A stretch of 20,000 nucleotides of DNA from an uncultured virus (IMG/VR IMGVR_UViG_3300031673_008321) (taxonomy: Duplodnaviria > Heunggongvirae > Uroviricota > Caudoviricetes), in IMG/VR virus record IMGVR_UViG_3300031673_008321; one strand, given 5' to 3'. The notes below the pieces were generated by a model that made no database searches, had not been told where the DNA came from, and saw only the letters and a list, made by a program, of their open reading frames with translations. Below are positions 272 to 19,866 of this stretch, piece after piece (the first letter of the stretch is position 1; each line of letters begins with the position of its first letter). Made by a program: the position numbers and the translations under genes.

Positions 272-304
272 TATCTAGCAAAAGGGTAGAATTATTCTAT
301 AATA
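272..304 (+). promoter_or_regulatory. Conserved phage promoter motif, copy 1
   Basis: TATCTAGCAAA-AGGGTAGAAT-TATTCTATAATA, with a TATAAT -10 box. It ends 7 bp before the MTase ATG, so the mRNA is probably leaderless. Confidence 0.8.
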
Positions 305-311
305 CGTATAT

Positions 312-1220
312 ATGAATATTAGAACTGAAATATTATTAGGTGACTGTTTGGGTGTTTTAAAAGATTATCCAGACGAAAAATTTAATTTAATAGTTACGTC
401 TCCTCCTTATGCCGATAGCCGTAGTAAAACATATGGTGGTGTACATCCAGATAAATATGTAGAGTGGTTTATGCCGTATGGAAAAGAGCTTTTTAGGGTA
501 CTTGATACAAAAGGTACTTTCGTATTAAATTTAAAAGAAAAAGTTGTGAATGGGGAACGGCATACTTATGTGTTAAATTTAATAATAGCTCTCAAAAAAG
601 CTGGTTGGTTATGGACAGAGGAATTTATTTGGCATAAGAAAAATTGTTATCCAGGAAAGTGGCCTAATAGGTTTAGAGATGCGTGGGAGAGGTGTTTACA
701 ATTCAATAAAATTAAACATTTTAACATGTATCAGGAAGAAGTTATGATACCTATAGGTAGTTGGTCTGTTCCCAGATTTAAGTGTTTAAGTGAAACAGAC
801 AAAATTCGAGATGAATCAGAGGTAGGTAGTGGCTTTGGCAAAAATGTTTCTAATTGGGTTGACAGAGAGTTGGTGTACCCTACTAATGTATTACACTTAC
901 CTACTGAAACCGGTAATAAGAAGCACAGTGCTGTGTTTCCCACTGCTTTACCGGAATGGTTTATAAAATTGTTTAGTAAGAAAGGCGATTGGGTATTAGA
1001 TCCTTTTGTGGGTTCTGGCACTACGTGTGCGGTTGCAAAATATTTGAATAGGAATTCAATAGGTATAGATAATTTAAGCGAAAATGTTGAAGAGGCTAAG
1101 AAACGTGTAAATATTGATCACAAATTTTTTATTGAGGAAAAAACAATTATTACTAATAAAGACACTTCAATTGATATTTTTGACGAATGGGAAAGGATTT
1201 CAAAAAATGGAAATAAATGA
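312..1220 (+). CDS. Site-specific DNA methyltransferase, N4-cytosine type, beta class
   Basis: Catalytic TSPPY near the N-terminus, HSAVFP motif, and SAM-binding VLDPFVGSGTT near the C-terminus. Confidence 0.93.
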   Translation: MNIRTEILLGDCLGVLKDYPDEKFNLIVTSPPYADSRSKTYGGVHPDKYVEWFMPYGKELFRVLDTKGTFVLNLKEKVVNGERHTYVLNLIIALKKAGWLWTEEFIWHKKNCYPGKWPNRFRDAWERCLQFNKIKHFNMYQEEVMIPIGSWSVPRFKCLSETDKIRDESEVGSGFGKNVSNWVDRELVYPTNVLHLPTETGNKKHSAVFPTALPEWFIKLFSKKGDWVLDPFVGSGTTCAVAKYLNRNSIGIDNLSENVEEAKKRVNIDHKFFIEEKTIITNKDTSIDIFDEWERISKNGNK

Positions 1221-1950
1221 ATTAGGGTTGAAAAAGTGTATTAACCAAAGTTTAAATAGATGTTTGGATAGGTTTGAGGCGGTTGAAATAGATATCAGTA
1301 AACGTATTAAAAAGATTAATCCTTATTTAATGGCCGCTATTCCTACTGATACAGATACGATTCTTAGAAATAATGTCATAACTTTTTTACAAAGGAGTTT
1401 AGAAACTATTTTTGGCAGCCTAATAGAAGATATAATAGAGTTTGTTTTAAACGAACGGGATGTTGAGTTTAGTAAGAAGCCAAATGAAGCAGGAGGCAAC
1501 GCGGATTTTATTTACAAAGATGGTCTCGGTTTTACTATCTATATGCCTGTAAAATCTAGCCCTTACTGGGGCAATAGTAGCCAGTATGCAAGTATGAATA
1601 GAGATTTTGCTGAGTTTAAAAAATCACATCCAGATGAAAAATTAAAACTTGTAAATTTTTGTGCTTATGGTAAAGAGCATGGTAAAAATAAAAAGTGTGG
1701 TCAAAGAGCTTGGTATTTTGTTTCTAACGGTGACAATGAACTTTATTTAAAAATAATTAGGTGTATTTCCTCTTTAAAAGCGGAGTCTGTTTGTGATAGG
1801 ATAGAAAATAATTTGATAAATAAATTTATTGTAGAATTTAAAAAGTATTTTTGTAAAGAAGATGAGGTATTGTGGGAAGAGGTTCTTAAATATAATGCGT
1901 GCCCTGCTTATGGGAATTTGAATTCGTTATTTCAAGATAAAATATTTTAA
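1207..1950 (+). CDS. Type II restriction endonuclease, EcoO109I/PmeII-like PD-(D/E)xK family
   Basis: Motifs INPYL, SLETIFG, ADF...VKSSPYWGNSSQ and CGQRAWYFVS..DNELYLKII. Overlaps the MTase end. Start moved to ATG 1207, which has a Shine-Dalgarno (SD) GAAAGGA at 1191-1197. Confidence 0.72.
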   Translation: MEINELGLKKCINQSLNRCLDRFEAVEIDISKRIKKINPYLMAAIPTDTDTILRNNVITFLQRSLETIFGSLIEDIIEFVLNERDVEFSKKPNEAGGNADFIYKDGLGFTIYMPVKSSPYWGNSSQYASMNRDFAEFKKSHPDEKLKLVNFCAYGKEHGKNKKCGQRAWYFVSNGDNELYLKIIRCISSLKAESVCDRIENNLINKFIVEFKKYFCKEDEVLWEEVLKYNACPAYGNLNSLFQDKIF

Positions 1951-1969: not shown

Positions 1970-2446
1970 ATGGGAAGATATTATGAAGCAGATGCAGTAG
2001 TTTATAATTTGATGGATGAGATAGTACATGAGCGGTTTGGGAACACACTTAGTGCAGCAACCATCAAAATTCTAATGGATAGTAAGACTAGAATAGATAA
2101 ACTTACTAACAGAATGACTTTTGCATCTATTAAAAGTGCCAGTGTGGTAGAAAAGTTTTTAAGCAAGGACGGTCATAATTTAGAAGGTATTGATTATATT
2201 ATCTTTTTATCGGATTTGGTGTGGGAACTTGCTAATGATAAGGATAAAAAGAGGATAATGTCTCATGAACTAAGGCATGCATTTTTGGACGAGAAAGGTA
2301 ATTACAAAATAGTTCGGCATGATATAGAAGATTTTTATGAAGAAGTCCAGTTGAACGAAGACGATCCTATGTGGGGTCAAGCACTTAGCACTGTAGCGAT
2401 AGCAAAGGTAGATCAAATGAAAGCTGAAGCAAAGGCTAATAAATAG
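1970..2446 (+). CDS. Putative phage metallopeptidase
   Basis: HELRH (HExxH) followed by HDIEDF, an arrangement typical of the phage metallopeptidase family. SD AGGAG upstream. Confidence 0.75.
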   Translation: MGRYYEADAVVYNLMDEIVHERFGNTLSAATIKILMDSKTRIDKLTNRMTFASIKSASVVEKFLSKDGHNLEGIDYIIFLSDLVWELANDKDKKRIMSHELRHAFLDEKGNYKIVRHDIEDFYEEVQLNEDDPMWGQALSTVAIAKVDQMKAEAKANK

Positions 2447-2455
2447 GGGGTTTTT

Positions 2456-2710
2456 ATGTCAAACAAAGGATTTACAGGTAAAGAAAAGATGTTAATAGAT
2501 TGGATGTCTGTGCGTAACGCTATTCTTTTAGCAGACACCGGTGAAATGAAAGTTACATATCATAAAAATGAGTTTGCTGGTGGTGGCATCGTAGGTTTAG
2601 TGGTAGAGTTGGTATTAAACTACAACGATCTTATGAAGCCAGATTTTACTAAGAATGAAAAAGCTGCCATTGATGCTGCAAAAAAGCAAAAAGAGCAAGA
2701 GAAGGTCTAA
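2456..2710 (+). CDS. Hypothetical protein
   Basis: 84-aa ORF with SD-like AGGGGG, in tandem with its neighbours. Confidence 0.6.
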   Translation: MSNKGFTGKEKMLIDWMSVRNAILLADTGEMKVTYHKNEFAGGGIVGLVVELVLNYNDLMKPDFTKNEKAAIDAAKKQKEQEKV

Positions 2711-2722
2711 GATTTATTTGTT

Positions 2723-3469
2723 ATGATGTATTTGAAAACACCACATCAGATAGACCGTATTGAATATGTTAATAAATTAGGCACAGAATTTCTAAAAATA
2801 TGCTATGATTATATTAAATCAGGCATATCTACATTTGAATTAGAGGAATTATCTATACAGTTTTGTGAAAAGAATAAAGTTAAACCATCTTTTTATAAGT
2901 ATCGTGGGTTTCCTCATCGGTTATGTGTGTCTATAAATGACGAAATTGTGCATGGATTTCCTAGTAGTTATGTAGTTAAAGACGGGGACATTATAAGTGT
3001 GGATTTTGGTGTAGAGAAGGATGGTTACTTTAGTGACGCTGCGTTTACTAAGACAGTAGGTAAAGTTCCTAGTAACACCAAAAAATTAGTGGAAATCACT
3101 GAAGAGTGTTTGTATAAAGGTATTGAGCAAGCCGTCCCCGGGAATAGGCTGTTTGATATTTCTAGGGCAATTCAATTATATGCTGCTCAACATAATTTTG
3201 ATACAGTGCGTGAATTTGTAGGCCACGGTGTGGGGTTAAAGGTACATGAACCGCCCCAAGTTCCTAACTATGTATCTATAGGAACAAATTGGAAATTAAG
3301 ACCTGGAATGGTGTTGGCTATTGAACCCATGCTAGTCGAAGGTAGTTATGGGATAAAAACTCACTATAATGGATGGACTATTTTTACTGCGGACGGGAAA
3401 ATGGCTGCACATTTTGAACATTCTATAGCTATCTTGGAGACTGGTCCTAAAATATTAAGCAAATTATAG
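2723..3469 (+). CDS. map: Methionine aminopeptidase, type I
   Basis: CVSINDEIVHG, DFG...DGYFSD, GHGVG..VHEPP, AIEPM and HFEHS; all five metal ligands are present. Confidence 0.96.
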   Translation: MMYLKTPHQIDRIEYVNKLGTEFLKICYDYIKSGISTFELEELSIQFCEKNKVKPSFYKYRGFPHRLCVSINDEIVHGFPSSYVVKDGDIISVDFGVEKDGYFSDAAFTKTVGKVPSNTKKLVEITEECLYKGIEQAVPGNRLFDISRAIQLYAAQHNFDTVREFVGHGVGLKVHEPPQVPNYVSIGTNWKLRPGMVLAIEPMLVEGSYGIKTHYNGWTIFTADGKMAAHFEHSIAILETGPKILSKL

Positions 3470-3482
3470 GGGGAAATGTAAG

Positions 3483-3920
3483 ATGATGTCGTTAAAGGAA
3501 GCAATAGCAGAAGTAAATAAAGCTGTTAAACATGCAAATGAAGTAGCAAAAAAGCTTACTACTAAAGACAGAAAGGCTTTAAAATCTACTACATTTTGTG
3601 GACCTAATAGAAGTTTTCCTGTTCCAGATTGTAAGCATGTTGGTACAGCGAAAGCTTATTTGAACAGATCAAAATTTTCTGGGGCGACTAAGAAAAGAAT
3701 AGCTGCTTGTATTAATCGAAAGGCTAAAGCATTAGGATGTACTCCCGGTAAACCTGCTAAGGCTAAAGGGGCTGTTGAGTATTCTTTTGATAACCTGCCA
3801 GAAGATCTTAAAAAATTGGCTGATAGTAAAATTTTTAAAACTACGAAAGAATTAGTAGAATCTTCTATTGAAAATGAAGGTATGGAGTTGGACTTTGTTG
3901 GTTGTAAAGATTGCGAATAA
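3483..3920 (+). CDS. Hypothetical protein with a DUF6582-like basic domain
   Basis: LTTKDRKALKSTTFCGPNRSFPVPDCKHV...IAACINRKAKALG resembles the 'L..R..L..S.F..P.R.FP..D..H' domain seen in phage head-associated proteins (recalled, not searched). Confidence 0.55.
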   Translation: MMSLKEAIAEVNKAVKHANEVAKKLTTKDRKALKSTTFCGPNRSFPVPDCKHVGTAKAYLNRSKFSGATKKRIAACINRKAKALGCTPGKPAKAKGAVEYSFDNLPEDLKKLADSKIFKTTKELVESSIENEGMELDFVGCKDCE

Positions 3921-3938
3921 TTTTTAGGGGTATATAAA

Positions 3939-4394
3939 ATGGCATGCGAAAATAATGAGTTGGCCGCAATTTTATTTAAAGCGGTGCAAGCTGGTATTGT
4001 TGTGGTGGACGCTAATACTAAAACTATAATAGATATTAATCCCGCTGCATCTTTTATGATAGGTGTTTCTAGGGAAGAAGTTATAGGAAAACTATGTAAA
4101 GAATATTTATGTGCGGAAGATTGTGACGGGTGCCCTATAATGACTGCTAATTTAGCAGAAGGGATTGAAGATGTAGAGAATAAAGAAATAGTTTTACACC
4201 GAAAGGACGGTTCAAAAGTATATGCATTACTAACTATAAATAGCACCATTTTAGATGGCAGGCGCCTGTTTATAAATAGTCTTATCGATATTACTAAACA
4301 AAAAGAAGCGGAGATGCAGCTGAAATCGCATTGGGATCATGCTGAAAAGTTATTATCTGATAACGTAGTGCGACTAAAAAACGGGGTGATCTAA
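3939..4394 (+). CDS. Stand-alone PAS domain protein
   Basis: GIVVVD...IIDINPAASFMIGVSREEVIGK followed by a PAC motif (RKDGS...DITKQK.AE). No output domain. Confidence 0.88.
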   Translation: MACENNELAAILFKAVQAGIVVVDANTKTIIDINPAASFMIGVSREEVIGKLCKEYLCAEDCDGCPIMTANLAEGIEDVENKEIVLHRKDGSKVYALLTINSTILDGRRLFINSLIDITKQKEAEMQLKSHWDHAEKLLSDNVVRLKNGVI

Positions 4395-4820
4395 ATGGCA
4401 GAAAATGGTGATAGCGTTCTCAAAGTTGTTCAGCTATTTATTGACAATATTAACGAATCCACTAAAAGCACAGCTAAAGAATTAGATAAACTTAGCGGTC
4501 AGGTGGATAGTGTTAAAACTAAAATTAATACGCCGCCAAGAAATGAAGAACTGTTTTCACAGATACAGGGCGTGGAAGGTAAAGTCAATACTATTACGAC
4601 TAATTTAACAACTATAAATACCTCTATAAAGTCTATGATCATATCTGTTAGAGTAGCAGCAATTGTAATGGGTTTTGCTATTATCATTGCAGCCGGTGTC
4701 ACACAATGTGGCAAATATATAGAAAATAGAAGTATAAAACAAGAAATTGATAAGTATTTGATATACAAGGATAAGGAGAAACAAGATGGAATTACATCAA
4801 GAACAGATGGACAGGATTAA
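4395..4820 (+). CDS. Coiled-coil protein with a single transmembrane helix
   Basis: Heptad-like N-terminal ~80 aa, then hydrophobic MIISVRVAAIVMGFAIIIAAGV. SD-like GGGGTG upstream. Confidence 0.65.
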   Translation: MAENGDSVLKVVQLFIDNINESTKSTAKELDKLSGQVDSVKTKINTPPRNEELFSQIQGVEGKVNTITTNLTTINTSIKSMIISVRVAAIVMGFAIIIAAGVTQCGKYIENRSIKQEIDKYLIYKDKEKQDGITSRTDGQD

Positions 4821-5097
4821 GGTAGAGTCTTATAAAGACTGCATTTGGTATGTGTCGGGCATTGATAGGTGTAAATTGCCTGGTATACTTGGAGAAAGGT
4901 ATTCAGAATGTTCTTGTAAAGAATGTAAGCTAGACGAGTTTTGTATTTGGATTACTAAATTTTTGAAATCAGCGCCTAAAGATATAGATGTTGATAACTA
5001 TACATCCGAATATTTACCAATAATTAATGATGATGGTATAGATGAAGCTTTACTTGTTAGTATGTTAGATAAAGTTTTTAATAGTAATAACGCTTAA
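4786..5097 (+). CDS. Hypothetical Cys-rich protein
   Basis: SD AAGGAG; six Cys including CSCKEC. Confidence 0.6.
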   Translation: MELHQEQMDRIKVESYKDCIWYVSGIDRCKLPGILGERYSECSCKECKLDEFCIWITKFLKSAPKDIDVDNYTSEYLPIINDDGIDEALLVSMLDKVFNSNNA

Positions 5098-5159
5098 GAC
5101 CTGTTGAGTTATTGCCGGTTGCAGGCACGGCGAATAAATGACCTAGGAGGGTTAAGATT

Positions 5160-5927
5160 ATGTATAAGGATAAGTTTGTTTTGTCTGTCATACACGATGG
5201 ACACCCAGTCAAAGAGACTGGATATAGAGGGAGTAAAGAAGTTGCTGTTCCCTTTGATAGCGAATATAAAATTCGCTTGAAGAACAAGAACGACATATCT
5301 TGCACGGCGAGAGTGCTTATTGATGGTAAGAAAGTTAGTCAGTTAGGAGATGTTATTGTCACCGCTGGGGGTACCATTGATTTAGAGCGGTACATTGACC
5401 GTTCGTTAGAGCAAGGAAAAAGATTTAAATTTGTTCCATTGGATAATTCTGATGTGGATGACCCCACCTCTTCAAGTAATGGTGTTATCGAGGTTGAGTT
5501 TAGAAAAGCCAAGCATCAGAATGGTATAAAAATTGATTATGATTGGCGCGATTTTGCTTGGACTCCCCCATATAAGGAAGATAATAATGGGCCTACATGG
5601 ACATTTAGTGGTGATTGTGGTGGTACTACAGCTGGGGATATGGGCGATTCGGTGCAATGTTATAGTGCCGGCTGCGAACTTGGCAAGCTTAAGTCTTCTA
5701 GATCTTTTGTATCGGCTGGAGCCACTGTAGAAGGAAGTAAATCAAATCAACAATTTACATATTCTAGTTTAGAGGTAGAAGATTATGCTGTAGTATTGAA
5801 ATTGAAGATTGTAGGTATAGAAAAGAGGGATACAATGCGTGATACTGAATATAAATACTGCATTCAGTGTGGTAAAAGAGTAAAGCGCGTTGCTAAATAT
5901 TGCTCAGAATGTGGGCGTAGGATATAA
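5160..5927 (+). CDS. Conserved hypothetical protein with a C-terminal zinc ribbon
   Basis: Strong SD AGGAGG; beta-rich N-domain (EYKIRLKN...V.IDG...IDLER...F.FV); C-terminal CIQC-x10-CSEC. Confidence 0.75.
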   Translation: MYKDKFVLSVIHDGHPVKETGYRGSKEVAVPFDSEYKIRLKNKNDISCTARVLIDGKKVSQLGDVIVTAGGTIDLERYIDRSLEQGKRFKFVPLDNSDVDDPTSSSNGVIEVEFRKAKHQNGIKIDYDWRDFAWTPPYKEDNNGPTWTFSGDCGGTTAGDMGDSVQCYSAGCELGKLKSSRSFVSAGATVEGSKSNQQFTYSSLEVEDYAVVLKLKIVGIEKRDTMRDTEYKYCIQCGKRVKRVAKYCSECGRRI

Positions 5928-5933
5928 CACTAC

Positions 5934-5968
5934 ATGCTCCGATCGTTACGATGGTCGGGGCATTTTTT
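5934..5968 (+). terminator. Rho-independent terminator
   Basis: Stem ATGCTCCGATC / GGTCGGGGCAT (with G-U pairs), 8-nt loop and T-run, just after the stop at 5927. Confidence 0.8.
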
Positions 5969-5987
5969 ATCCATTTTATCGTGGTTT

Positions 5988-6020
5988 TATCTAGCAAATT
6001 TGATTTTATATTCTATAATA
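5988..6020 (+). promoter_or_regulatory. Conserved phage promoter motif, copy 2 (upstream of the yeaG operon)
   Basis: TATCTAGCAAA-TTTGATTTTA-TATTCTATAATA, directly after a terminator. Confidence 0.82.
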
Positions 6021-6070
6021 TTATAAAGGTTATTAGTATAGCTGACAATGTATATAGGGGAGTAAAAAGA

Positions 6071-6202
6071 ATGCCGAAAACTACTGAAAATTATTATCAC
6101 GTTCCTGTTGCGGATATTTCTGTAGAAGCTATTTCTTTGGTAAAAGATATACAAGATTTTTATAGAGAATCAAAAAAAGAAGTGTTGCAAACTTTGGACT
6201 AG
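6071..6202 (+). CDS. 43-aa small protein (MPKTTENYYHVPV...)
   Basis: ATG 6071 has SD GGGGAG and lies downstream of the promoter. The longer 5951 start would run through the terminator and promoter. Confidence 0.55.
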   Translation: MPKTTENYYHVPVADISVEAISLVKDIQDFYRESKKEVLQTLD

Positions 6203-6219
6203 TTGGAAAGGAGAAAACC

Positions 6220-8175
6220 ATGAACGATTTCAAAGACATTATTTGTGAACAGCAGGAGTGCAAGAAAGTCGAAGACTGGGAAGGTACTGTACTTGATTAC
6301 CTATACAAGGTTCAAGAAAATTCTGGAATTGCTACTTTTGCACCTGGGCGTATATATAATATGGTAATTGCTCATGGATGTGATAAAGTCGATGAATCGC
6401 TTAAGTTAAGGGGGTACGATGATTTAGTAACCTATAAATTTTTTGACGGTAATATTTTTGGAACCTTGGAATCTTTACATGATATAATGAGGTTCTTAAA
6501 AGCTGCTGCTCGTCGTACAGAAACAGGAAAAAGAATTCTTATCATGGTTGGGCCTGTTAGTAGTGGTAAATCCACTATTGCTGCTCTATTAAAAAGAGGG
6601 CTGGAACAAGATAGTGTACCTAAATTTGTATTAAAGAATTGCCCGATGCATGAAGAGCCTTTGCATGCTATTCCTTTGTTAGATCGGAAATATTGGGAAG
6701 ACAAGCTAGGTATTAAAATTGAAGGAACGCTTTGTCCAGTATGCCAACAGAGATTAGATGATGAATTTACTGAAGAGGGCGTATCTCGTTGGGACAAATT
6801 AGAAGTTGAATCTATTAAATTTTCAGAACAAAAGCGTTTAGGTATAGGCACATTTCAACCAAGTGATCCCAAGTCCCAGGATGTTACTGAACTTATTGGA
6901 AAAGTTAACATGTCGAAAGTAGCTCGATTTGGGGATACAGACCCCAGGGCTTTTCAATTTGACGGTGAATTGCAGGTAGCTAATGGTGGTTTGATTGAAA
7001 TGATTGAACTTTTAAAAACTGACATTAAATTACAGTATGTACTAATTTCTTTGGCTCAGGAACAAGTTATTAAATCTCCCGGCTTTCCTCAAATCTATGT
7101 AGATACTCTTATTTTAGCCCACACAAACCAGACTGAGTTTGATTCGTTTAGGTCTGATAAAAAGAACGAAGCATTGCATGATAGGATGTATCCCATCATG
7201 GTTCCGTGGAATTTGAGAGTAAGTGATGAGATTAAAATCTACGAAAAAATGATTAATGAATCTGATTTTAGGAATATTCATATAGCTCCACACACTTTGA
7301 AAGTGGCTGCTGAGTTCGCAGTGCTTTCTAGGATGGTTGATTCGAGCAAGGTGTCAAGTAAAATTGAAAAAATGAAGCTTTATAATGGTGAAATTACTGA
7401 AGGTTTTAAGCAATCTGATATAGATGTAAAGGCAGTAAGACAAGAAGGCAAAGACAAGGGTGAAGGTATGTCTGGTATTTCGCCGAGGTTTATAATTAAT
7501 GCTCTTAACGTAGCCCTTGGTAGTAAAGAAGAAAAGAAATGTGTCAATGCTATTGACATAATTAGATATCTAAGAGATAACTTTGATCATCATATTGGTA
7601 TTGCTGAAGAAGACAAGGAGAGGTTTCTAAATCTTTTAATCGGTGACAAAGATTCTGTTAGTGCTGAGTATAAAGAGGTGGCTAAAAAGGAAGTTAATAT
7701 GGCTTTCTTGTATGCCTATGAGGAACAAGCAAACACGTTGTTCGATAATTACATGAGAAATGTCACATCTGTTTGTAAGAAAGAAAAGGTATATGACTCT
7801 ATTACAGGGGAATATTCTGATGCTGACGAGAAGTTGATGAGATCTATCGAGGAATTAGTTCCTGGTGGGGTGCCAGAAAATTCTAAGAATGAATTCCGTA
7901 ATGGTATTTTTGTACATAAATCATCAGCGCTAGAAAAAGGCAAAAAATTTTCTTATAAGAATTACCCGCCATTGAAAGACGCTATTGAAAAGAAACTTAT
8001 GGGAGACCTTAAATCAGTAGTAAGTCTTTCGTTAGCTGATACCACTATTACAGATCCTAAGGCTGGTAGGCGTAGACAAAAAGCATTGACAACCCTACTA
8101 AAAAATGGATATTGTAAAGAGTGTGCTAATATGTTGTTATCATTTATCGGTGAGGTTTTAAGGAAAGAAGAATAA
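6220..8175 (+). CDS. prkA: PrkA/YeaG family AAA+ ATPase ('serine protein kinase')
   Basis: Walker A GPVSSGKST, CPMHEEPL, IGTFQPSDPKSQD, DPRAFQFDGELQVAN, NEALHDR, EGMSGISPRF and C-terminal GYC..CA. Confidence 0.95.
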   Translation: MNDFKDIICEQQECKKVEDWEGTVLDYLYKVQENSGIATFAPGRIYNMVIAHGCDKVDESLKLRGYDDLVTYKFFDGNIFGTLESLHDIMRFLKAAARRTETGKRILIMVGPVSSGKSTIAALLKRGLEQDSVPKFVLKNCPMHEEPLHAIPLLDRKYWEDKLGIKIEGTLCPVCQQRLDDEFTEEGVSRWDKLEVESIKFSEQKRLGIGTFQPSDPKSQDVTELIGKVNMSKVARFGDTDPRAFQFDGELQVANGGLIEMIELLKTDIKLQYVLISLAQEQVIKSPGFPQIYVDTLILAHTNQTEFDSFRSDKKNEALHDRMYPIMVPWNLRVSDEIKIYEKMINESDFRNIHIAPHTLKVAAEFAVLSRMVDSSKVSSKIEKMKLYNGEITEGFKQSDIDVKAVRQEGKDKGEGMSGISPRFIINALNVALGSKEEKKCVNAIDIIRYLRDNFDHHIGIAEEDKERFLNLLIGDKDSVSAEYKEVAKKEVNMAFLYAYEEQANTLFDNYMRNVTSVCKKEKVYDSITGEYSDADEKLMRSIEELVPGGVPENSKNEFRNGIFVHKSSALEKGKKFSYKNYPPLKDAIEKKLMGDLKSVVSLSLADTTITDPKAGRRRQKALTTLLKNGYCKECANMLLSFIGEVLRKEE

Positions 8176-8209
8176 TGTACAGGGATTGCTGTAAATACCG
8201 GAGGATAAT

Positions 8210-9589
8210 ATGGCGATAGTTAATCATCCAGATTGGGATTTGTCCGAGCGTGGTAAAAAAGACGCTGAGAGGCATCGCAAAAAGATAGACGACGCTATTC
8301 GGAAGAACGTTAAGGATGTTATTTCTGAAGAGTCCATTATAACTCGTAAAAAGGGTAAGAAAGTAAGAGTACCAGTTAAAGGGTTAAAAGACTACAGATT
8401 TGTACATGGAGGCAAAAAAGGTAAGGCCGAGGGTGATGGTGACGGCGATGGTGAAGGTGCTGGTCAGGGACAGGGTAAGCCTGGAGATATAATAGGTAGA
8501 AGACAAAAAAAGGGCGATGGTAAGGGCAAAGATGGCAAAGCCGGAGATCAACCCGGCGAAGATTATCTTGAAACTGAAGTTTCTATAGATTATCTTATAG
8601 AAATAATGTTCGAAGACCTTGGATTACCTTGGATAGAAGAGAAAACAAGAGCTAGTCAACTGGTGCCAAGTGGTTGGAAATTTGAAACTATTTCTAAGAA
8701 GGGGATATTTCCCAGAGTTCATAAAAAGCGCACCATGTTGGAAGCTATTAAGCGCAATGAATTATACGCTAAAGAGATAGAAGAAGAAACAGGGTGCAAT
8801 CATGATGATGCCTTGAGAGCTTTGACTCAAGCTAAAGGCGACATAAATGATGCTATTGATATAATTAACAAAAACGAACTCGATATGTCGCTTGATCCTT
8901 ATGTTGTAGTAGAAGACGGGGACATGAGGTATAAGCAAATTGAGGAGGATTATGAACTACATTCTAACGCAGTAGTTATTGCTATGATGGATACAAGCGG
9001 GAGTATGACTACTGATAAGAAGTACTTGTGCAGATCATTATTGTTTTGGCTGACAGAATTTCTAAAGAAAGTATATGACCATGTGGATATTAAGTTTGTC
9101 ACACACACCACTGATGCTAAATTAGTAGATGAAGATACTTTTTTCCACAAGGGGGAGAGCGGCGGCACTTATTGTTGGACTGCTGTTGACAAAGCCCTTT
9201 ACCTAATAGATACAGAATATCCTGTAGACGAGTGGAACGTGTACACGATTTATATGTCCGATGGTGACGATTTTGATGCTGATAAGACTATTAGATATAT
9301 AGAAGAGTTGTTGAAACGAAAAATCAGTATGTTTGCTTACACTGAAGTTGATCCTGGCAGAGACGCTGGCAACGCTGACGCTGATCAAACACCTGCCTGG
9401 GGATTACTGTGGAGTTCAGGTAATACACTAATAAAGAAAATAAAAGAGAAATGGAAATTTGTTTGTAAAAAAGAAGAGGGCACAGAGTTTTGTAAGAATG
9501 AAGAAGAACACTTTTTGTTGTCTGTTATAACAGATAAATCCCAGGTCTACCCCGTATTACGTCACATACTTTTTAAGGAAGATATATGA
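8210..9589 (+). CDS. yeaH: YeaH/YhbH (DUF444) vWA-domain protein
   Basis: D..RHRKKI N-terminus, Gly-rich linker and intact MIDAS (DTSGS, SGGT, SDGD). Canonical position after yeaG. Confidence 0.93.
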   Translation: MAIVNHPDWDLSERGKKDAERHRKKIDDAIRKNVKDVISEESIITRKKGKKVRVPVKGLKDYRFVHGGKKGKAEGDGDGDGEGAGQGQGKPGDIIGRRQKKGDGKGKDGKAGDQPGEDYLETEVSIDYLIEIMFEDLGLPWIEEKTRASQLVPSGWKFETISKKGIFPRVHKKRTMLEAIKRNELYAKEIEEETGCNHDDALRALTQAKGDINDAIDIINKNELDMSLDPYVVVEDGDMRYKQIEEDYELHSNAVVIAMMDTSGSMTTDKKYLCRSLLFWLTEFLKKVYDHVDIKFVTHTTDAKLVDEDTFFHKGESGGTYCWTAVDKALYLIDTEYPVDEWNVYTIYMSDGDDFDADKTIRYIEELLKRKISMFAYTEVDPGRDAGNADADQTPAWGLLWSSGNTLIKKIKEKWKFVCKKEEGTEFCKNEEEHFLLSVITDKSQVYPVLRHILFKEDI

Positions 9590-10350
9590 CACAAAAGTTA
9601 TCTATTGACTATGTAAAAGAAGAATCAAAAAAAAGAGGGTCCGAATGTGTGTCGTATAATTATAAAAATGCCCTGACCAAGCTTAAATTTAGATGTAGTA
9701 GGGGTCACATTTTTGAGTCGTCTTGGAACTCTATTCAGCAAGGCCAGGGGTGTGGGTCATGTAAATACGAAAACACGTCTTTGGGTATGAGAGGCAAAAA
9801 ACATTATTTTTGGAATGGTGGGTATAGACAAAGAGGTGTACCTACTTACGAAACTTATGCCGAACAAATTTCTTATGCAGAGAATGTTAGGAGAAATTCT
9901 AATGATAAAAACATATTAGAAGTTAAATGCGCTTACTGCGGGCAATGGTTTACTCCATCTATACCAAATTTAAATAGTAGAATCCAATCTCTTAAAGGCA
10001 ATGCGTTAGGAGAACATAGGCTTTATTGCTCAAACGGTTGTAAGAAGGCTTGTCCTATATTTGGGCAGTATAAATATCCAAAAGGGTTTAAGCCAGCAAC
10101 TTCCCGAGAAGTTCAGCCACAATTAAGGCAGATGGTTTTGAAGCGGGACGATTACACTTGCCAAAAATGTGATAAAATGATAGATGCGGTAGAATTGCAC
10201 TGCCATCATATAGATCCGGTTGCCAATAATCCTATAGAATCGGCAGATACAGATAACTGTATAACTTTTTGTAAAGATTGTCACAAAGAAGTTCATAAAC
10301 AAAGTGGGTGTAAATATCATGAATTAAGATGTACTGAAAAGGTGGTCTAA
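9586..10350 (+). CDS. HNH (homing) endonuclease with zinc-finger domains
   Basis: CSRGH...CGSC, CAYC...CSNGC, and C-terminal RDDYTCQKC...HCHHI...N...CKDCHKEVH. Confidence 0.85.
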   Translation: MTQKLSIDYVKEESKKRGSECVSYNYKNALTKLKFRCSRGHIFESSWNSIQQGQGCGSCKYENTSLGMRGKKHYFWNGGYRQRGVPTYETYAEQISYAENVRRNSNDKNILEVKCAYCGQWFTPSIPNLNSRIQSLKGNALGEHRLYCSNGCKKACPIFGQYKYPKGFKPATSREVQPQLRQMVLKRDDYTCQKCDKMIDAVELHCHHIDPVANNPIESADTDNCITFCKDCHKEVHKQSGCKYHELRCTEKVV

Positions 10351-11978
10351 TGACAAATAATGATTTGAAAAGATTAATTAAAATAGAAGATAGGATAAAA
10401 CAGATATTTCACGAGGATTTAGGATTGACATCCTATCCAATAGAATTTGATATAGTTCCTCCACAAAAAATGTTGGAGGTTATGGCGTATAACATCCCAA
10501 CTAATATATCAAACTGGAAAAAAGGCCGCGACTATGAAATTCAACGCACAAGATATGAATATGCTGCTGCGGGACTACCTTATGAAGTAGTTATTAACGC
10601 TGATCCTGCAAGAGCTTACCTTATGAATAACAACAAGTTTTCGGTGCAGTGCTTGGTTATGGCTCATGTTTATGGCCATGCTGCATTTTTTACACATAAT
10701 AAATTTTTCCAAAATTCGAGGCGCGATATAATAGCAGCAATGAAAGCTGCCTCTGAAAGATTTAATAAATATGAAAAGCGATTTGGTGTGGATGAAGTAG
10801 AAAAAACTGTGGACGCAGGACATGCTTTACAATTCCATTCAAGCCCTTTCGCTTCCAATGAAACTGAAAAAGAAAAACGTAAAAAAATATTTGAACAAGA
10901 GAAGAAAAAAGCTCACACTCATGGTGGTACTTTTGGAGATTTGACCGGTACTGTTATAGCTGAGATTAATGAAGATTTAGAACTATTCAACCAAAAGTTG
11001 TGGCGCAAATTGAGGTTAAAAACACCAATAGAACCAACTGATGATTTACTAAGATATATTATTGACAATTCTACACTGTTAGAAGATTGGCAACAAGATA
11101 TTTTAGAAGTATTAAGGATGGAAGGACAATACTATTGGCCCATCATCAAGACTAAATTCATGAATGAGGGGTTTGCCGTAGTAGTTCATGAAAAGATAAT
11201 GACTAAGCTATTTGAAGAGGATTTACTTACCAGTGCAGAACACGCGGATTTTAATTATTCTAACTCATTAGTTAAAGCCAGCAATCCTTTTGGACTTAAT
11301 CCATATTTGATTGGTTCTTCAATGTGGCGTGATATAGAAGATAGGTGGGACAGAGGTTGTCATGGAAGTGATTGGTCGGAGTGTAAAAATGCCCAGGTTA
11401 AAGAAAATTGGGATACAAAAGATATGGTAGGCTGGCAGAAGTGCAAAGAAATTATGGAGATAAATTCTGATTGGTTTTTTATGCAAGAATTTTTAACTTC
11501 CGAGCTTATAAGAGATATAAAAATTTATGTGTTTGCTGCTAAGGACGCTGGGCAAACCATAGACTACATTATAACTAAAGATACAGCGGAGGAAATCCGT
11601 CTAAAAATATTAGATGCCTTCGCTCAGAATACTACCCCAAGTATTGATATCGTTAATGGTAATTATGAGGAAAAGGGTTGGTTAGAATTAAAACATAACT
11701 GGGTCGGTGTTGATCTTGAAGAAACATATGCAAAAGAAACTATGAGGCATATGGCTTATTTGTGGGGTAGAGCGGTGGTACTTGGTACTGAAGAAGGGGA
11801 ATTCAAGTGGGGCTCAAAAGAAAAAGTTAAGAAAATAAGCTGGAAGATCTTACCTCCGGGTGAGGAGGTCCCGGAAGAACCAAAAGAAGAAGAAAAGGAG
11901 GATGTTGTAACTGCTGCTTGGAAAAAGCTATGGAAAATTGCTTCACCACTAGATCAGACTTACCGATGTCCGTGGTAA
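10350..11978 (+). CDS. spoVR: SpoVR/YcgB family protein
   Basis: YEVVINADP..AYLM..N, MAHVYGHAAFF, WQQDILEVLR.E..Y..P..KTKFMNEGFA and NPY.IG. Completes the yeaG-yeaH-ycgB triad. Confidence 0.94.
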   Translation: MTNNDLKRLIKIEDRIKQIFHEDLGLTSYPIEFDIVPPQKMLEVMAYNIPTNISNWKKGRDYEIQRTRYEYAAAGLPYEVVINADPARAYLMNNNKFSVQCLVMAHVYGHAAFFTHNKFFQNSRRDIIAAMKAASERFNKYEKRFGVDEVEKTVDAGHALQFHSSPFASNETEKEKRKKIFEQEKKKAHTHGGTFGDLTGTVIAEINEDLELFNQKLWRKLRLKTPIEPTDDLLRYIIDNSTLLEDWQQDILEVLRMEGQYYWPIIKTKFMNEGFAVVVHEKIMTKLFEEDLLTSAEHADFNYSNSLVKASNPFGLNPYLIGSSMWRDIEDRWDRGCHGSDWSECKNAQVKENWDTKDMVGWQKCKEIMEINSDWFFMQEFLTSELIRDIKIYVFAAKDAGQTIDYIITKDTAEEIRLKILDAFAQNTTPSIDIVNGNYEEKGWLELKHNWVGVDLEETYAKETMRHMAYLWGRAVVLGTEEGEFKWGSKEKVKKISWKILPPGEEVPEEPKEEEKEDVVTAAWKKLWKIASPLDQTYRCPW

Positions 11979-11987
11979 CGGGCAAAC

Positions 11988-12369
11988 GGGGGCGATACGG
12001 CTTCGATCGTTCAGGTCGGGCTAAGAACGCGATACGCAGGGCTGTGACTGCGTTATAACACAGGATGAAAAACAATTAACGTTTCTATATTTGACTACGC
12101 CAATAAGGTACTTAAGGGCGTGGTCATTAAACCTAAGTACGCTGTAGCTTAATACAGCTTACGCGGCTCCTGTAATAGCTAGGAACAGAAATTACAGCTC
12201 AGAGTAGCTTATTCCTCGTGCGCGGCTCTTTGAGTATAAATGCGTAGAGGGTGCTAGGAGATCCTTCCCAGAGGTTCTGCTACCACTCACATATCTGGGA
12301 AAAATTATCGTACATCGTTTTTAGTGCTGAGTGGGCGACACTCGGGTTCGACTCCCGACGCCTCCACCA
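11988..12369 (+). ncRNA. ssrA: tmRNA (transfer-messenger RNA), 382 nt
   Basis: 5' GGGGGCG pairs with 3' CGCCTCC-ACCA, giving the G3:U70 Ala identity pair. Also GGCTTCGA near the 5' end, T-arm TCGGG-TTCGACT-CCCGA, helix 2 CTAAGAACG/CGTTTTTAG, pseudoknot 1 (ACGCAG/CTGCGT + CTGTG/CACAG, 12034-12063) and a tag frame ending ...KYAVA-TAA at 12152. Confidence 0.95.
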
Positions 12370-12375
12370 AATTAA

Positions 12376-12408
12376 TATCTAGCAAAACATCAGTTTTATT
12401 CTATAATA
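12376..12408 (+). promoter_or_regulatory. Conserved phage promoter motif, copy 3
   Basis: TATCTAGCAAA-ACATCAGTTT-TATTCTATAATA, 6 bp after the tmRNA CCA. Confidence 0.82.
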
Positions 12409-12439
12409 TAGGCAAAATAGGAGAATTTAGGAGAATTAT

Positions 12440-12757
12440 ATGTGGTGGATTACACAGGTTTTGGGTGTTATAGTAATCACCTGTGTCCATACTTTTAATA
12501 GGTGGGCTGGGATACAGGGCTGGAGTTTTTTAAGTAGGCTATTTGGAAATGTAATAGGCCAAGCAATCGCAGCTCCGCTTTTTATGATGTCTTATACAAT
12601 AGCACCATCATTTTTTCAAGTATCTTTTGTTGGTACAGCTGTAATAGCGGTGCTAATGTTTTTAGCAAGTGTATTCTTTTTTTGCGAAACTATAACGTTG
12701 ATTAAACTAATAGGAGCCGCACTTGCAATAGCAGGATCGGTTATTTTAATTTTATAA
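12440..12757 (+). CDS. Small 4-TM membrane protein, DMT/SMR/EamA-like
   Basis: 105 aa with about four hydrophobic segments; C-terminal FF.E.IT..KLIG..L.IAG..IL is a DMT-superfamily signature. Confidence 0.65.
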   Translation: MWWITQVLGVIVITCVHTFNRWAGIQGWSFLSRLFGNVIGQAIAAPLFMMSYTIAPSFFQVSFVGTAVIAVLMFLASVFFFCETITLIKLIGAALAIAGSVILIL

Positions 12758-12771
12758 GAAGGAGGCCGAAA

Positions 12772-13044
12772 ATGAGCTACATATGTGATATACCAAAGAA
12801 ATTTTGCAATCTAAGAGATAAAGATGAGTTGTGTAGGCTTAAGCGGCCTTGTCTTCCTATAGTAGAACAATGTGAAGGTTGTGAAAAAATAGAAAATGGT
12901 TATTGTAAATCTTACGCTGCTCCTACTATAAAATGGGATCATGGAAGAGACTGTCCGATGGCTACACATATTGAAACAGAAAAAGAGAAGGCAAATAAAC
13001 TTCGTATAGGACAACAAAAACAGAAAATAAAACACCATAAATAA
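12772..13044 (+). CDS. Cys-rich protein, PxxKW-family-like
   Basis: C.PIVEQCEGC...YC..Y..PTIKW...CPMATH pattern with a basic tail; SD AGGAGG. Confidence 0.65.
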   Translation: MSYICDIPKKFCNLRDKDELCRLKRPCLPIVEQCEGCEKIENGYCKSYAAPTIKWDHGRDCPMATHIETEKEKANKLRIGQQKQKIKHHK

Positions 13045-13070
13045 TAAAATTTTGCTAAAATACAGGGATT

Positions 13071-13103
13071 TATCTAGCAAAAAGGTTAAATTATTCTATA
13101 ATA
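13071..13103 (+). promoter_or_regulatory. Conserved phage promoter motif, copy 4
   Basis: TATCTAGCAAA-AAGGTTAAAT-TATTCTATAATA, upstream of the Rad52-like gene. Confidence 0.82.
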
Positions 13104-13136
13104 TATATAGAATTAAGAGGAAAAGGAGAACAAGAA

Positions 13137-14051
13137 ATGCAAAAAGAGATTTTAGAGGAATTGTATAAACCTTTCGAGTTGAAGGCGAGGAAAGGGGTAG
13201 GTAATCAGACATTTAGTTATGTTCCAAGCGATGATGTTGTTGACCGTATGAACAAGGTTTTTAGAGGTGATTGGAGTACTGAGGTTGTAGAGAAGGAAAT
13301 TATAGATGACCAAATTCTAATCAGAGTAAGGGTTTATGTTAAAGACCCTGGTGATGCTGATGCTAAAACGCATTGGCATGAGGGTTATGCAAGCCAGCCA
13401 ATAGCTAAATATAGTCAAGGTCAAAAAGCAGGTCAAATTATAGATATCGGTAATTCGTACAAATCTGCTATGTCGAAAGCGATTAAGACCGCTGTAGCTA
13501 AATGGGGGGTCGGTTTATATTTAGAAAAAGGATCACCCAGTGAAGAGAGCGATGCGGATTCTTGGGGACCACCTAATATTCCTACTAGTGTTCCAGAAAT
13601 CAAACCAGTAGAACAGCCTATACTACCTGTGGCAGCCCCAGTGATTCCTCCTGTGGTAGTACCAGTGGCTACGCCAGTTAGTGCTCCGTTTAATGCGCCG
13701 TTCGGTATTCCTGTGAACACGCCTACTGTAGAGCATAAATACGCGGCTGCACCACTAAATATTCCCACAGTGTTTTCAAATGACAATGTGGTTGTTGCCC
13801 AACCCAATATACCAACTGGTTTTAATCCACCTATATCTTCAGTTCCAACATCAGTAGCCGTTGAAAATTTAACGGATGTTCAGAAAGCTGCGATAGAAAA
13901 CATTATGTCTGTTCATGGAAAGAGCTTTGCTGAGTTGTCGTCCGCTGCACTACAAAGAACTGATAATTTACCAAATACTTCAGAAGCGTTGAGTTATAAG
14001 GATGCTGTTAAGCTTATACAATATGGTAATAATTTAAATGCAAGTTCCTAA
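13137..14051 (+). CDS. Rad52/Rad22 (Sak-like) single-strand annealing protein with a Pro-rich linker
   Basis: L..PF...R.G......SYV....V.DRMN.VF...W...; K.A.S.A.K.A..KWGVGLYL; then a low-complexity Pro/Val/Ala region and a short helical C-domain. Confidence 0.85.
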   Translation: MQKEILEELYKPFELKARKGVGNQTFSYVPSDDVVDRMNKVFRGDWSTEVVEKEIIDDQILIRVRVYVKDPGDADAKTHWHEGYASQPIAKYSQGQKAGQIIDIGNSYKSAMSKAIKTAVAKWGVGLYLEKGSPSEESDADSWGPPNIPTSVPEIKPVEQPILPVAAPVIPPVVVPVATPVSAPFNAPFGIPVNTPTVEHKYAAAPLNIPTVFSNDNVVVAQPNIPTGFNPPISSVPTSVAVENLTDVQKAAIENIMSVHGKSFAELSSAALQRTDNLPNTSEALSYKDAVKLIQYGNNLNASS

Positions 14052-14071
14052 TACTATAATGGAGAAATATA

Positions 14072-15994
14072 ATGAGCGATAATTACAAAGCAATTAAAAT
14101 TTATCTTGAAACAGTACAGTATAGTCTCTTAATTTTTCAAATTCCAGAAGATGAACTTGATGATAAATTAACTTACCTTACGCGTGAAAAGGGGTTGATA
14201 GCTAAAAGTTTATACCACGATTTTCTAATAGCTACATTTGTTTCTAATATTAGTCAATTTTTACAACATTTACAACAAAAAGGCACAGATAAAGAACAAC
14301 TTAATACGATTAGATCTGAAGTTGTAGATAAAATATTAGAAATTAATACTAAACTTATTCCTAGTAATTTAATTATTAACACTAACCACGTTGTGAAGCT
14401 TAAAGATGGCCCTAAAAAAGACAATGAAAGATTTCTAACTGAAAATGATTTTTGGAAGAGGGATATTTATATAGATGGCGAAACGGCTTTAGATAAATCT
14501 GGCACTAAAAAGTTGGATAAGAGCGCCATCAAAAATGTAAAAGACTTGGAGTTCATTCTAGTTCAAAAATTTTGGCGTAGAATAGGCCAATACGTTAATA
14601 TTAAACAGTTTGAGCCTGGTAGTGAGTTAGTTATTCTTGCCAATAGAAGTTTTAATGCACGAACTTCTTTTGAACAATACGTAATTACTATTTGTATTGA
14701 AGAAATAGAAGACCTTTTCATGCGGTTAGATAAAATAGGGCTTCCTAATAGGGTTGCAGCGCCTATTTTGATACATGAATTGTATGAAATTTGTAGAAAA
14801 TCTAATCCGTTTTTAGATTTTGATGTGTATAAAGACACTTTAGGCGGAGACATTCCAGAAGATTTTGATGGTGATAGTAGGGATCCGTTCGAAGCATTTC
14901 AGTCTGCTGCACAAAATAATCCGGAAGAGCTTTTATCAGACGCTCTTAAAAAGAAAAAAATTAAACTATTTCGAGATGTTGATAAGACTAGATTATTGCA
15001 GCTTGATGACAATATGAAGAAAAAAATTATGGGCCAAGACAAGCCTATAGATGATTTAGTAGATGCTATTCAGAGAGCAAGTGTTGGTTTGAAAGACCCA
15101 GAACAGCCTATTGGTTCGTTTATATTTACCGGATACACTGGAGTGGGCAAAACATATGCCGCCAAGGTATTAGCTGAAGAGCTTATAGGTAGTCAGCATG
15201 GTATTGTTATTGTTGATTGTTCAGAATATTCGGCTGATCATGAGTACTCAAAACTTATTGGTGCACCGAGCGGGTATATAGGACATGAGAACGGTGGTTA
15301 TTTAACCAACGCAGTTAAAAAGAATCCTTTTAGTGTTATTTTGTTTGACGAAGTAGAGAAAGCCAGTGAAAGAGTTCACCAGTTGTTGCTTCAAATCATG
15401 GATGAAGCACGATTAACTGATGGTAGGGGTCAGAAAGTGTCCTTTAGAGACACCATTGTTATTATGACTTCTAACTTAGGCGTTAAGGAAGTTCAAAACG
15501 TATCAAAAACTATTGGTTTTGGTAATGCTTCTAAACTGACTAAGGAAAAAAGAGTAAATGCGGTTAAAGAAGCTCTTAAAAAGAAATTTAGGCCTGAGTT
15601 CCTTAATCGAGTTTCATGTATGGTGAATTTTGATATGCTTACCAAAAAGGATTACATGAGAATTATTAAACTTGAACTTGAAAAACTCAAAAGAAATCTC
15701 AAGGTAAATCGTACAGAGTATTCTAAACTTGATGTTACATTTGACAAAACACTATACAACCATATTTATACAACAGGTATAGATGAAAAATTTGGAGCTC
15801 GTCCTCTTAAACGAGCTATTGAGAAGGAGGTTTCTACTCCCCTCGCAAAAAAATTGCTGAAAGATAATGTTGACTGCTCTAATACTAAAGTTACTGTTTT
15901 AGCACAGAAGGGCAAAGTGGTTATAGATGTAGTGTACTCAGACAAAGTAGACGATCCACCATTTTATATGGAGGTCGGTAACGGTGATAATTAA
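14072..15994 (+). CDS. Clp-family AAA+ ATPase (single ClpA/B/C D2-type domain) with an unrecognised N-terminal region
   Basis: Walker A GYTGVGKT, pore loop GAPSGYIG, Walker B LFDEVEK, IMTSN, IGF loop, FRPEFLNR and GARPLKR. No first AAA domain. Confidence 0.9.
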   Translation: MSDNYKAIKIYLETVQYSLLIFQIPEDELDDKLTYLTREKGLIAKSLYHDFLIATFVSNISQFLQHLQQKGTDKEQLNTIRSEVVDKILEINTKLIPSNLIINTNHVVKLKDGPKKDNERFLTENDFWKRDIYIDGETALDKSGTKKLDKSAIKNVKDLEFILVQKFWRRIGQYVNIKQFEPGSELVILANRSFNARTSFEQYVITICIEEIEDLFMRLDKIGLPNRVAAPILIHELYEICRKSNPFLDFDVYKDTLGGDIPEDFDGDSRDPFEAFQSAAQNNPEELLSDALKKKKIKLFRDVDKTRLLQLDDNMKKKIMGQDKPIDDLVDAIQRASVGLKDPEQPIGSFIFTGYTGVGKTYAAKVLAEELIGSQHGIVIVDCSEYSADHEYSKLIGAPSGYIGHENGGYLTNAVKKNPFSVILFDEVEKASERVHQLLLQIMDEARLTDGRGQKVSFRDTIVIMTSNLGVKEVQNVSKTIGFGNASKLTKEKRVNAVKEALKKKFRPEFLNRVSCMVNFDMLTKKDYMRIIKLELEKLKRNLKVNRTEYSKLDVTFDKTLYNHIYTTGIDEKFGARPLKRAIEKEVSTPLAKKLLKDNVDCSNTKVTVLAQKGKVVIDVVYSDKVDDPPFYMEVGNGDN

Positions 15995-19833: not shown

Positions 19834-19866
19834 TATCTAGCAAAATCTTCATTTTATTCTATAATA
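19834..19866 (+). promoter_or_regulatory. Conserved phage promoter motif, copy 5
   Basis: TATCTAGCAAA-ATCTTCATTT-TATTCTATAATA. Confidence 0.82.

Follow-up and report, generated by a model that had tools for sequence, protein, structure and literature searches.

The window analysed here is a 20,000-nucleotide stretch of DNA from an uncultured tailed virus (IMG/VR record IMGVR_UViG_3300031673_008321), and the element in question is the block of about 14 kb between positions 1970 and 15994, in which the initial annotation had seen a phage-encoded island for protein quality control. The genes behind that proposal, namely a HExxH peptidase, a methionine aminopeptidase (MetAP, gene map), the full yeaG-yeaH-ycgB triad (prkA, yeaH and spoVR), a transfer-messenger RNA (tmRNA) and a Clp ATPase with an IGF loop, are all in place, look intact and lie on the + strand, which carries all called genes of the window (Table 1); the guanine-plus-cytosine content ranges from 31 to 42%. 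Two amendments are needed. Namely, unrelated genes also lie inside the span (PAS, Rad52-like, DUF6811, zinc-ribbon and several unknowns), and the Clp ATPase, while indeed equipped with an IGF loop, has one AAA+ module only, behind 300 residues without a family match. Taken as a whole, the 14-kb span is a patchwork of separately inherited parts and not one conserved system. The explanation we favour, with a probability of roughly 0.62, is that the clade to which the window belongs owns a Clp protease whose front end for binding substrates is new, accompanied by an accessory tmRNA that would keep ribosomes available, and that the triad was added in one subclade.

The block is not one island because contigs with the triad are mostly without tmRNA, Clp ATPase and MetAP, and contigs with this Clp family are mostly without the triad. 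In particular, a scan of IMG/VR with the window's PrkA gave 115 relatives, from which 80 loci were retained (L001-L080, 56-77% identity), and among these the gene order of the window is shared only by L007 and L008 (contigs G001 and G002). A GTDB scan added the short L092 and also L093, which again has the window's gene order; the window, G001, G002 and L093 form the subclade of our synteny comparisons. Among the 50 longest of the 80 contigs, mostly fragments with one at least 90% complete, a tmRNA occurs in two and a Clp-type ATPase in two, both times G001 and G002, and MetAP is found in none of 20 other triad-bearing viral contigs. Conversely, PrkA scores above cut-off in two of the 16 viral contigs that carry the window's Clp family, all of them fragments, and it is absent from the most complete ones, G016 (86%) and G019 (89%), as well as from five of five further large capsid contigs of the clade. 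MetAP is present in nine of the 16, at variable position. The sole constant neighbours of the ATPase are the Rad52-like gene upstream and ORF156, an open reading frame (ORF) of 156 residues, downstream, at all 17 loci (the 16 and the window, two near-copies of L334 being excluded).

Would the data nevertheless allow an island in which peptidase, MetAP, triad, tmRNA and Clp were co-selected for starved hosts or against mRNA-cleaving toxins, as first proposed? We consider this very unlikely. The proposal can appeal to the order of all five, which is the same in the window, G001, G002 and L093, to the tmRNA starting 2-14 nucleotides after the spoVR stop in all four, to an Hsp20 gene directly upstream of the peptidase in G001 and G002 (the window has a restriction-modification pair there instead), and to the single promoter class that heads each unit of the window. 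However, the linkage fails outside this subclade, and independent carriage in related phages is what the initial annotation itself had named as evidence against an island, so that as a conserved unit it is largely refuted. What is more, genes with no role in quality control (PAS, DUF6811, Rad52, cupin and ORF342) are just as conserved in the subclade's synteny, and in G001 approximately 9 kb are inserted between peptidase and map. Even the protease activity of PrkA is disputed: it was described as an ATP-dependent protease in B. subtilis (PMC9512850), whereas a re-purified homologue, 88% identical, had negligible protease activity (PMC13001217), and, as far as the accessible parts of these two papers go, the function of PrkA is unsettled.

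The window itself carries no head gene, and its assignment to an uncultured clade of tailed jumbo phages is supported through the genes that it shares. Namely, its gene order recurs in IMG/VR viral records, and genes for capsid, portal, terminase and endolysin are present in relatives that share its Clp, which bears out the phage origin assumed at the outset. G016 and G019 both have terminase and capsid matches, to which G019 adds matches to portal and endolysin. In IMG/VR, 318 relatives of the G019 capsid protein are found, and its nearest cultured match is phage G, at 22%. The CheckV completeness of two syntenic IMG/VR contigs (12% for 35 kb and 24% for 68 kb) implies a genome of about 285 kb. 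An intein-containing DNA polymerase A is encoded in G002, along with a clamp and its loader, DnaB, primase, RecA, ribonucleotide reductase and ThyX. A cellular origin was also considered, since L092 and L093 sit in metagenome-assembled genomes (MAGs) of GTDB and the L093 tmRNA is the sole one found in its MAG, and was rejected as mis-binning because of the synteny with viral records, the placement in the viral PrkA clade and an ordinary tmRNA with a 9-residue tag elsewhere in the L092 MAG. Contigs from four public DNA runs match the window in 27-30 of 30 bins, in pieces of at most 3.4 kb, none of those listed spanning the whole window. The runs listed as holding window sequence, from 13 studies, are soil, sediment and aquatic DNA, with no RNA run among them; six of the rows are possible sources.

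Judged from its sequence, the Clp ATPase is of an undescribed type, in which two novel repeats precede a lone motor of the ClpB/C-D2 kind. Pfam and NCBIfam models match only residues 303-617, approximately, where a D2-type module has Walker A and B motifs, a GYIG pore loop, the IGF loop and a GARPL sensor-2 motif; in the predicted model (mean predicted local distance difference test score of 79) this part aligns with nucleotide-binding domain 2 of ClpB and with ClpC (Foldseek E approximately 1e-30). In this respect, and in the IGF loop found in ClpA and ClpC, it resembles the class I Clp/Hsp100 proteins (ClpA, ClpB and ClpC). Unlike them, it does not have two AAA+ modules, scores far below every equivalog cut-off and gives no match to D1, the middle domain or the Clp N-domain, with the two unrelated repeats standing there instead. 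Nor does it belong to the ClpX lineage (PRK05342 28.9 bits against a cut-off of 359, and no zinc-domain match). Because the first alignment scans were dominated by ordinary ClpB/C, an N-terminal alignment was used for the family counts. Residues 1-300 retrieve 145 proteins, mostly of 630-660 residues or intein-enlarged; among the 120 listed of these 145, the IGF loop is present in 116 and a VGF variant in two, and 115 have the Walker A and 117 the Walker B motif. Searching with a profile yielded 89 representatives; 46 of these are at least 400 residues long, and 45 of the 46 have the D2 module. No cultured phage matches the N-terminal region. The two tandem repeats, each of beta-hairpin and helical elements, span approximately residues 3-96 and 160-252 (hhalign P 2.3e-5 over 90 columns; four control pairs gave P 0.16-0.71). 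Their resemblance to the structures 3klu, 3fgx, 5ir0 and 2ob9 is weak (Z 4.0-4.5, root-mean-square deviation 3.2-4.8, 77-91 aligned residues), and a Foldseek search with them returned nothing at E 0.001, as did a structure-atlas search above 0.9.

Docking of the IGF loop on ClpP is established for ClpA, ClpC and ClpX, and from its own IGF loop the clade ATPase is predicted to dock on ClpP as well. Among the partners named at the outset as worth seeking elsewhere on the contig, clpP and smpB, the former was found at the level of the clade. Two of the 16 Clp-family contigs have it, G016 and G019, exactly those that reach the terminase; starting from the capsid gene, it is found in 14 of 24 capsid-bearing contigs and in all 11 of those with at least 20 kb upstream of that gene, its position being upstream of the head genes. 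This ClpP is full-length, with the Ser, His and Asp catalytic motifs matched in 13, 14 and 13 of 14 sequences, and it stands closer to housekeeping than to head-maturation enzymes, scoring 247-248 bits on the cellular model (PRK00277, cut-off 249, so 0.5-2 bits under) and 72-86 bits on the head-maturation model (cut-off 120). Since this ClpP is of the cell type and keeps its catalytic motifs, both components of an ATP-dependent protease are probably the clade's own. In this sense, the claim of a phage-owned set for tagging, unfolding and degrading survives at clade level, owing to the presence of ClpP, and falls as a conserved island. The ATPase was not found in five further capsid contigs searched with the A7 profile or in four searched with PF07724 (G019 as positive control), contigs whose completeness is 31-72% and which may stop short of the locus. 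SmpB was absent from all four viral contigs searched, all incomplete; a host SmpB would suffice.

The neighbours of the ATPase invite another reading, in which remodelling, in phage DNA recombination or in the assembly of virions, would be its main task; proteolysis would then be secondary, and the ATPase would have no connection with the tmRNA. Its targets would be complexes of Rad52 and ORF156, which it would strip, or clients resembling those of tail chaperones. Rad52 and ORF156 are indeed the only invariant neighbours, under one promoter-like site; in the window, HNH and cupin genes lie between Clp and ORF156. ORF156 was assigned to no family and has no structure-atlas match above 0.9, and its structural likeness to DUF559 nucleases is below threshold. 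The top four structural rows for the ATPase repeats include the HK97 tail assembly chaperone, a weak match. That said, the IGF loop is nearly invariant and points to ClpP docking, and the fold matches just mentioned are all below any reliable threshold. We consider a mainly remodelling role very unlikely.

The tmRNA of the window is a full covariance-model match, including the tRNA-like domain and the CCA end, and starts 9 nucleotides past the spoVR stop, the intervening stretch having no motif promoter. Our tmRNA counts come from Rfam, because default ARAGORN missed the tmRNAs of G001 and G002 that Rfam found. On this basis, nine of the 16 Clp-family contigs have a tmRNA (eight over the cut-off; among the seven contigs without one, three are near-copies of a single phage), on the same strand as the ATPase and 1.7-8.1 kb upstream of it in all nine, with tRNAs within 1.5 kb in six; the subclade lacks the tRNA array. 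The resume codon of the window's tag is uncertain, ARAGORN placing it at 12093 and the homologues at approximately 12078-12081. The ten tags compared (G001's degenerate tag excluded) are related and hence represent one inherited motif: they are 21-30 residues long and share the consensus S-[MIL]-h-D-Y-A-x-x-x-L, with L in all ten and S in nine, as well as a small hydrophobic end. Control tags from cells, 28 read from 29 loci in genomes with related PrkA, have 9-13 residues with a median of 10, and 27 of the 28 end in AA, as against two of the ten clade tags. In other words, the clade tags do not have the form of the canonical SsrA degron (approximately 10 residues with an Ala-Ala end). Their identity by codon position is 0.53/0.65/0.34, which argues for selection on the tag peptide.

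Tags of this kind raise the possibility of an orthogonal degradation circuit. Namely, the tag would be a degron in two parts (an N-terminal amphipathic helix, a variable linker and the hydrophobic end), its helix would be read by the ATPase repeats, and rescued or deliberately tagged proteins would go to the phage ClpP, bypassing host ClpXP and its adaptors, with the subclade's triad riding on the tmRNA transcript. The length of the tags, their helix motif under peptide-level selection and the rarity of the AA end all fit this idea, as does the position of all nine tmRNAs within 8.1 kb upstream of the ATPase. Moreover, tail-assembly chaperones bind helical clients, and the repeats weakly resemble such chaperones. 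We nevertheless regard the circuit as rather unlikely. Seven of the 16 ATPase contigs, including the two most complete, have no tmRNA; because the repeats are still conserved there, they would have another job. The proximity of tmRNA and ATPase follows from the position of the tRNA array, the tmRNA of G001 is shortened to 252 nucleotides and its tag has lost the hydrophobic end, and the fold match stands at Z 4.0-4.5.

Some observations on the ATPase and the tag stand apart from this argument. In a separate phage group (L175-L251, with a portal nearby in many), a two-module ClpC-like ATPase of approximately 670 residues has no N-domain, and a tmRNA lies nearby in eight of 77 loci, several with 21-residue tags that start GNTFAK (e.g. 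L217:8936-10951, 13588-14010); this is a second lineage in which an altered Clp N-terminus accompanies a long tag. In G001, the shortened tmRNA occurs alongside a frameshifted Clp gene, possibly through joint decay or an assembly error. In G002, LAGLIDADG inteins interrupt YeaH and the Clp ATPase (L086:10170-12806; L087:621-3743), the Clp intein just before the pore loop.

In the window's triad, all three families are recognised and both the Walker A and MIDAS motifs are intact. Among the 80 viral loci the triad is complete in 70, the incomplete ones being mostly at a contig edge. Its typical setting is a T4-like head module in the order capsid, small-terminase-like gene, triad and neck (e.g. 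L002:9514-14788): in 53 of 59 loci a T4-type capsid gene is found upstream, in 33 of 39 a neck gene follows downstream, and prkA is directly preceded by a 161-residue gene in 71 of the 74 loci where there is space for it (42 of 45 once dereplicated at 90%). The best PDB match of the 161-residue profile is a T4-type small terminase, suggestive at E 0.017. In Thermus phage Lalka27b (L083:4791-14280) the triad lies between portal/minor head genes and the terminase, and in YS40 two genes from the terminase; the annotations of phiLo, MN1 and RsoM2USA show no head genes near it. In the T4-like loci, the triad may be a chaperone for head assembly or packaging, or may simply be expressed late. The initial annotation had suggested trees as a way to see whether the phage copies form clades of their own; for PrkA, in a quick LG+G4 tree of 92 rows, 50 viral rows fall on one branch (Shimodaira-Hasegawa approximate likelihood-ratio support, SH-aLRT, of 99), sister to copies from Desulfobacterota, Fibrobacterota, Spirochaetota and Planctomycetota, with the window's four PrkA rows nested among the T4-like ones. 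Transfer of the triad from phage to phage is likely on this tree, which does not give its direction. No solved structure matches YeaH or SpoVR; PrkA has one, 9xip.

Built on directly observed gene content, motifs, distribution and tag conservation, the phage-owned protease that we favour would have three layers. The clade core would be the unit of Rad52, Clp ATPase and ORF156, in which the ATPase would act as a ClpB/C-D2 motor without D1, its N-terminal repeats probably selecting substrates and its IGF loop docking on a ClpP ring, most simply that of the clade's own cell-type ClpP, to give an ATP-dependent protease. The second layer would be accessory support of translation: the tmRNA, usually in a tRNA array upstream of Clp, would rely on the host's SmpB in releasing stalled ribosomes, adding a long tag with a hydrophobic end, and MetAP, Pth2 and Hsp20 would come and go nearby. 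Finally, one subclade would have acquired the triad by transfer, set directly before the tmRNA and probably co-transcribed with it.

Several points weigh against this explanation. Every contig is a fragment. The contigs of the window's own subclade end short of the head region and show no ClpP, whose presence there is extrapolated from the clade; in G016 and G019 it lies more than 100 kb from the ATPase, and it might itself be the prohead protease, as a different head protease was not identified. The Clp gene of G001 is frameshifted (L088:4944-6805; L352). What is more, the whole block is retained in all four subclade contigs, at PrkA identities of 76-83%, and proteostasis genes are dense here (Hsp20 and Pth2), which fits some selection for clustering. 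As for the triad, an approximately unbiased test does not reject the monophyly of T4-like PrkA (p 0.103), and the donor is not established by the tree.

Phage tmRNAs, phage ClpP together with a Clp ATPase, and the occurrence of the triad in phages are already in print, as the accessible parts of the following reports show. Bacillus/Lysinibacillus phage G carries a tmRNA with a 13-residue tag and adjacent clpP-clpX (PMC12484599). Like the clade, it is a jumbo phage owning tmRNA, ClpP and a Clp ATPase, and its capsid is the nearest cultured match mentioned above; the clade differs in its D2-only ClpB/C derivative with novel repeats, encoded far from clpP, and in its longer tags. Huge phages carry genes for translation rescue (PMC7162821), and phage tmRNAs have been surveyed (PMC4131195; PMC9004378, with 402 of 18,146 phages). 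The clade shares with these the rescue of ribosomes, or the proposed selective tagging of host proteins, whereas the accessible portions of those accounts describe neither a conserved tag of great length nor a phage ATPase paired with the tmRNA. The triad has the same three families as bacterial prkA-yhbH-spoVR, in the order found in its cellular sister group. Copies are already annotated in the Thermus phages YS40, TMA, phiLo, MN1 and Lalka and in Ralstonia phage RsoM2USA, the last in print (PMC8504454); the window's copy differs in belonging to the separate viral clade (SH-aLRT 99), most members of which lie in T4-like head modules. A term search of the main text of the Lalka paper finds no mention of vWA, AAA or SpoVR (PMC11437467), and literature searches outside subscription papers and supplements showed no description of the ATPase architecture, the long tag motif or the triad's position in head modules.

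An ATPase that combines novel repeats with a single D2 motor, and whose cognate partner is likely a phage ClpP, bears on what a minimal Hsp100 can be and on how phages redirect proteolysis. Tags kept as peptides and yet unlike those of the host bear on why phages keep tmRNA. If the orthogonal circuit were true, the phage would decide which stalled or targeted proteins are destroyed, and its pair of tag and protease would be a useful tool for orthogonal degradation. The molecular job of the triad is unsettled in bacteria too, and its setting in dozens of T4-like phages, with capsid/small-terminase-like genes on one side and neck genes on the other, gives an entry point and a concrete place to seek its substrate.

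As for transcription, the motif CTAGCA-N17-TATAAT has five exact copies on the + strand of the window and none on the - strand. It recurs at matching places in L093, where the -35 element is likewise the variant CTAGCA, and G001 and G002 have TTTACA at some matching sites; a generic scan of the window for promoters and terminators stayed at shuffle level overall. Because this repeated promoter-like motif divides the span, four units are likely, namely methylase to map and beyond, prkA-yeaH-HNH-spoVR-tmRNA, a 105-residue ORF with DUF6811, and Rad52-Clp onward.

Table 1. Positions of genes, RNA and promoter- or terminator-like sites in the 20,000-nucleotide window
Feature	Position	Strand	Details
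Promoter-like site	275..303	+	Probable start of unit through methylase, metallopeptidase and map
Type II restriction-modification pair (N6/N4 methylase and EcoO109I-like endonuclease), complete	312-1950		Directly before metallopeptidase
Putative phage metallopeptidase, HExxH	1970..2446	+	PF18894 62.9 bits; HELRH at 99
Type I methionine aminopeptidase (map)	2723..3469	+	TIGR00500 287.7 bits, cut-off 171.35
Stand-alone PAS domain protein	3939-4394		Enlarged to PAS-GAF-PAS-PAS in L093:6234-7922
Terminator-like hairpin	5934..5963	+	13 pairs, T tail; between map unit and triad unit; weak alone
Promoter-like site	5991..6019	+	Ahead of 43-residue ORF (6071-6202), prkA, yeaH, HNH, spoVR, tmRNA
PrkA/YeaG AAA+ ATPase	6220..8175	+	PF08298, PF06798; Walker A at 111
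YeaH/YhbH vWA protein	8210..9589	+	DUF444 307 bits; MIDAS DTSGS at 261
HNH endonuclease	9586..10350	+	Inserted between yeaH and ycgB; absent in G001 and L093
SpoVR/YcgB	10350..11978	+	PF04293, PF24755
One-piece tmRNA	11988..12369	+	ARAGORN; Rfam RF00023 71.1 bits (gathering 47), model positions 1-374
Tag reading frame	12078..12152	+	At most 24 residues, ending YAVA
Promoter-like site	12379..12407	+	Right after tmRNA, ahead of 105-residue membrane ORF and DUF6811
Promoter-like site	13074..13102	+	Rad52-Clp unit
Rad52/Rad22-like annealase	13137..14051	+	PF04098; invariant upstream neighbour of Clp
Clp ATPase	14072..15994	+	IGF at residue 481; single AAA+ module, D2 type, residues ~303-610
ORF156, 156 residues	17409..17879	+	Conserved downstream partner of Clp, 17/17 loci
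Promoter-like site	19837-19865	+	Fifth copy of motif

The MetAP of the window has all five metal ligands of type I enzymes (D94, D105, H168, E201 and E232). Upstream of Rad52-Clp, a Pth2-like peptidyl-tRNA hydrolase family is found in six of the 17 loci (e.g. L342:5648-5950), and ARAGORN reports a tRNA-Pyl with an amber anticodon, a possible suppressor tRNA, in L334, L336, L172, L338, L341 and L342. Finally, two genes from clpP in G019, beside a coiled-coil ORF and the endolysin, lies an actin homologue of the Volactin family (L395:16232-17221, 217 bits).

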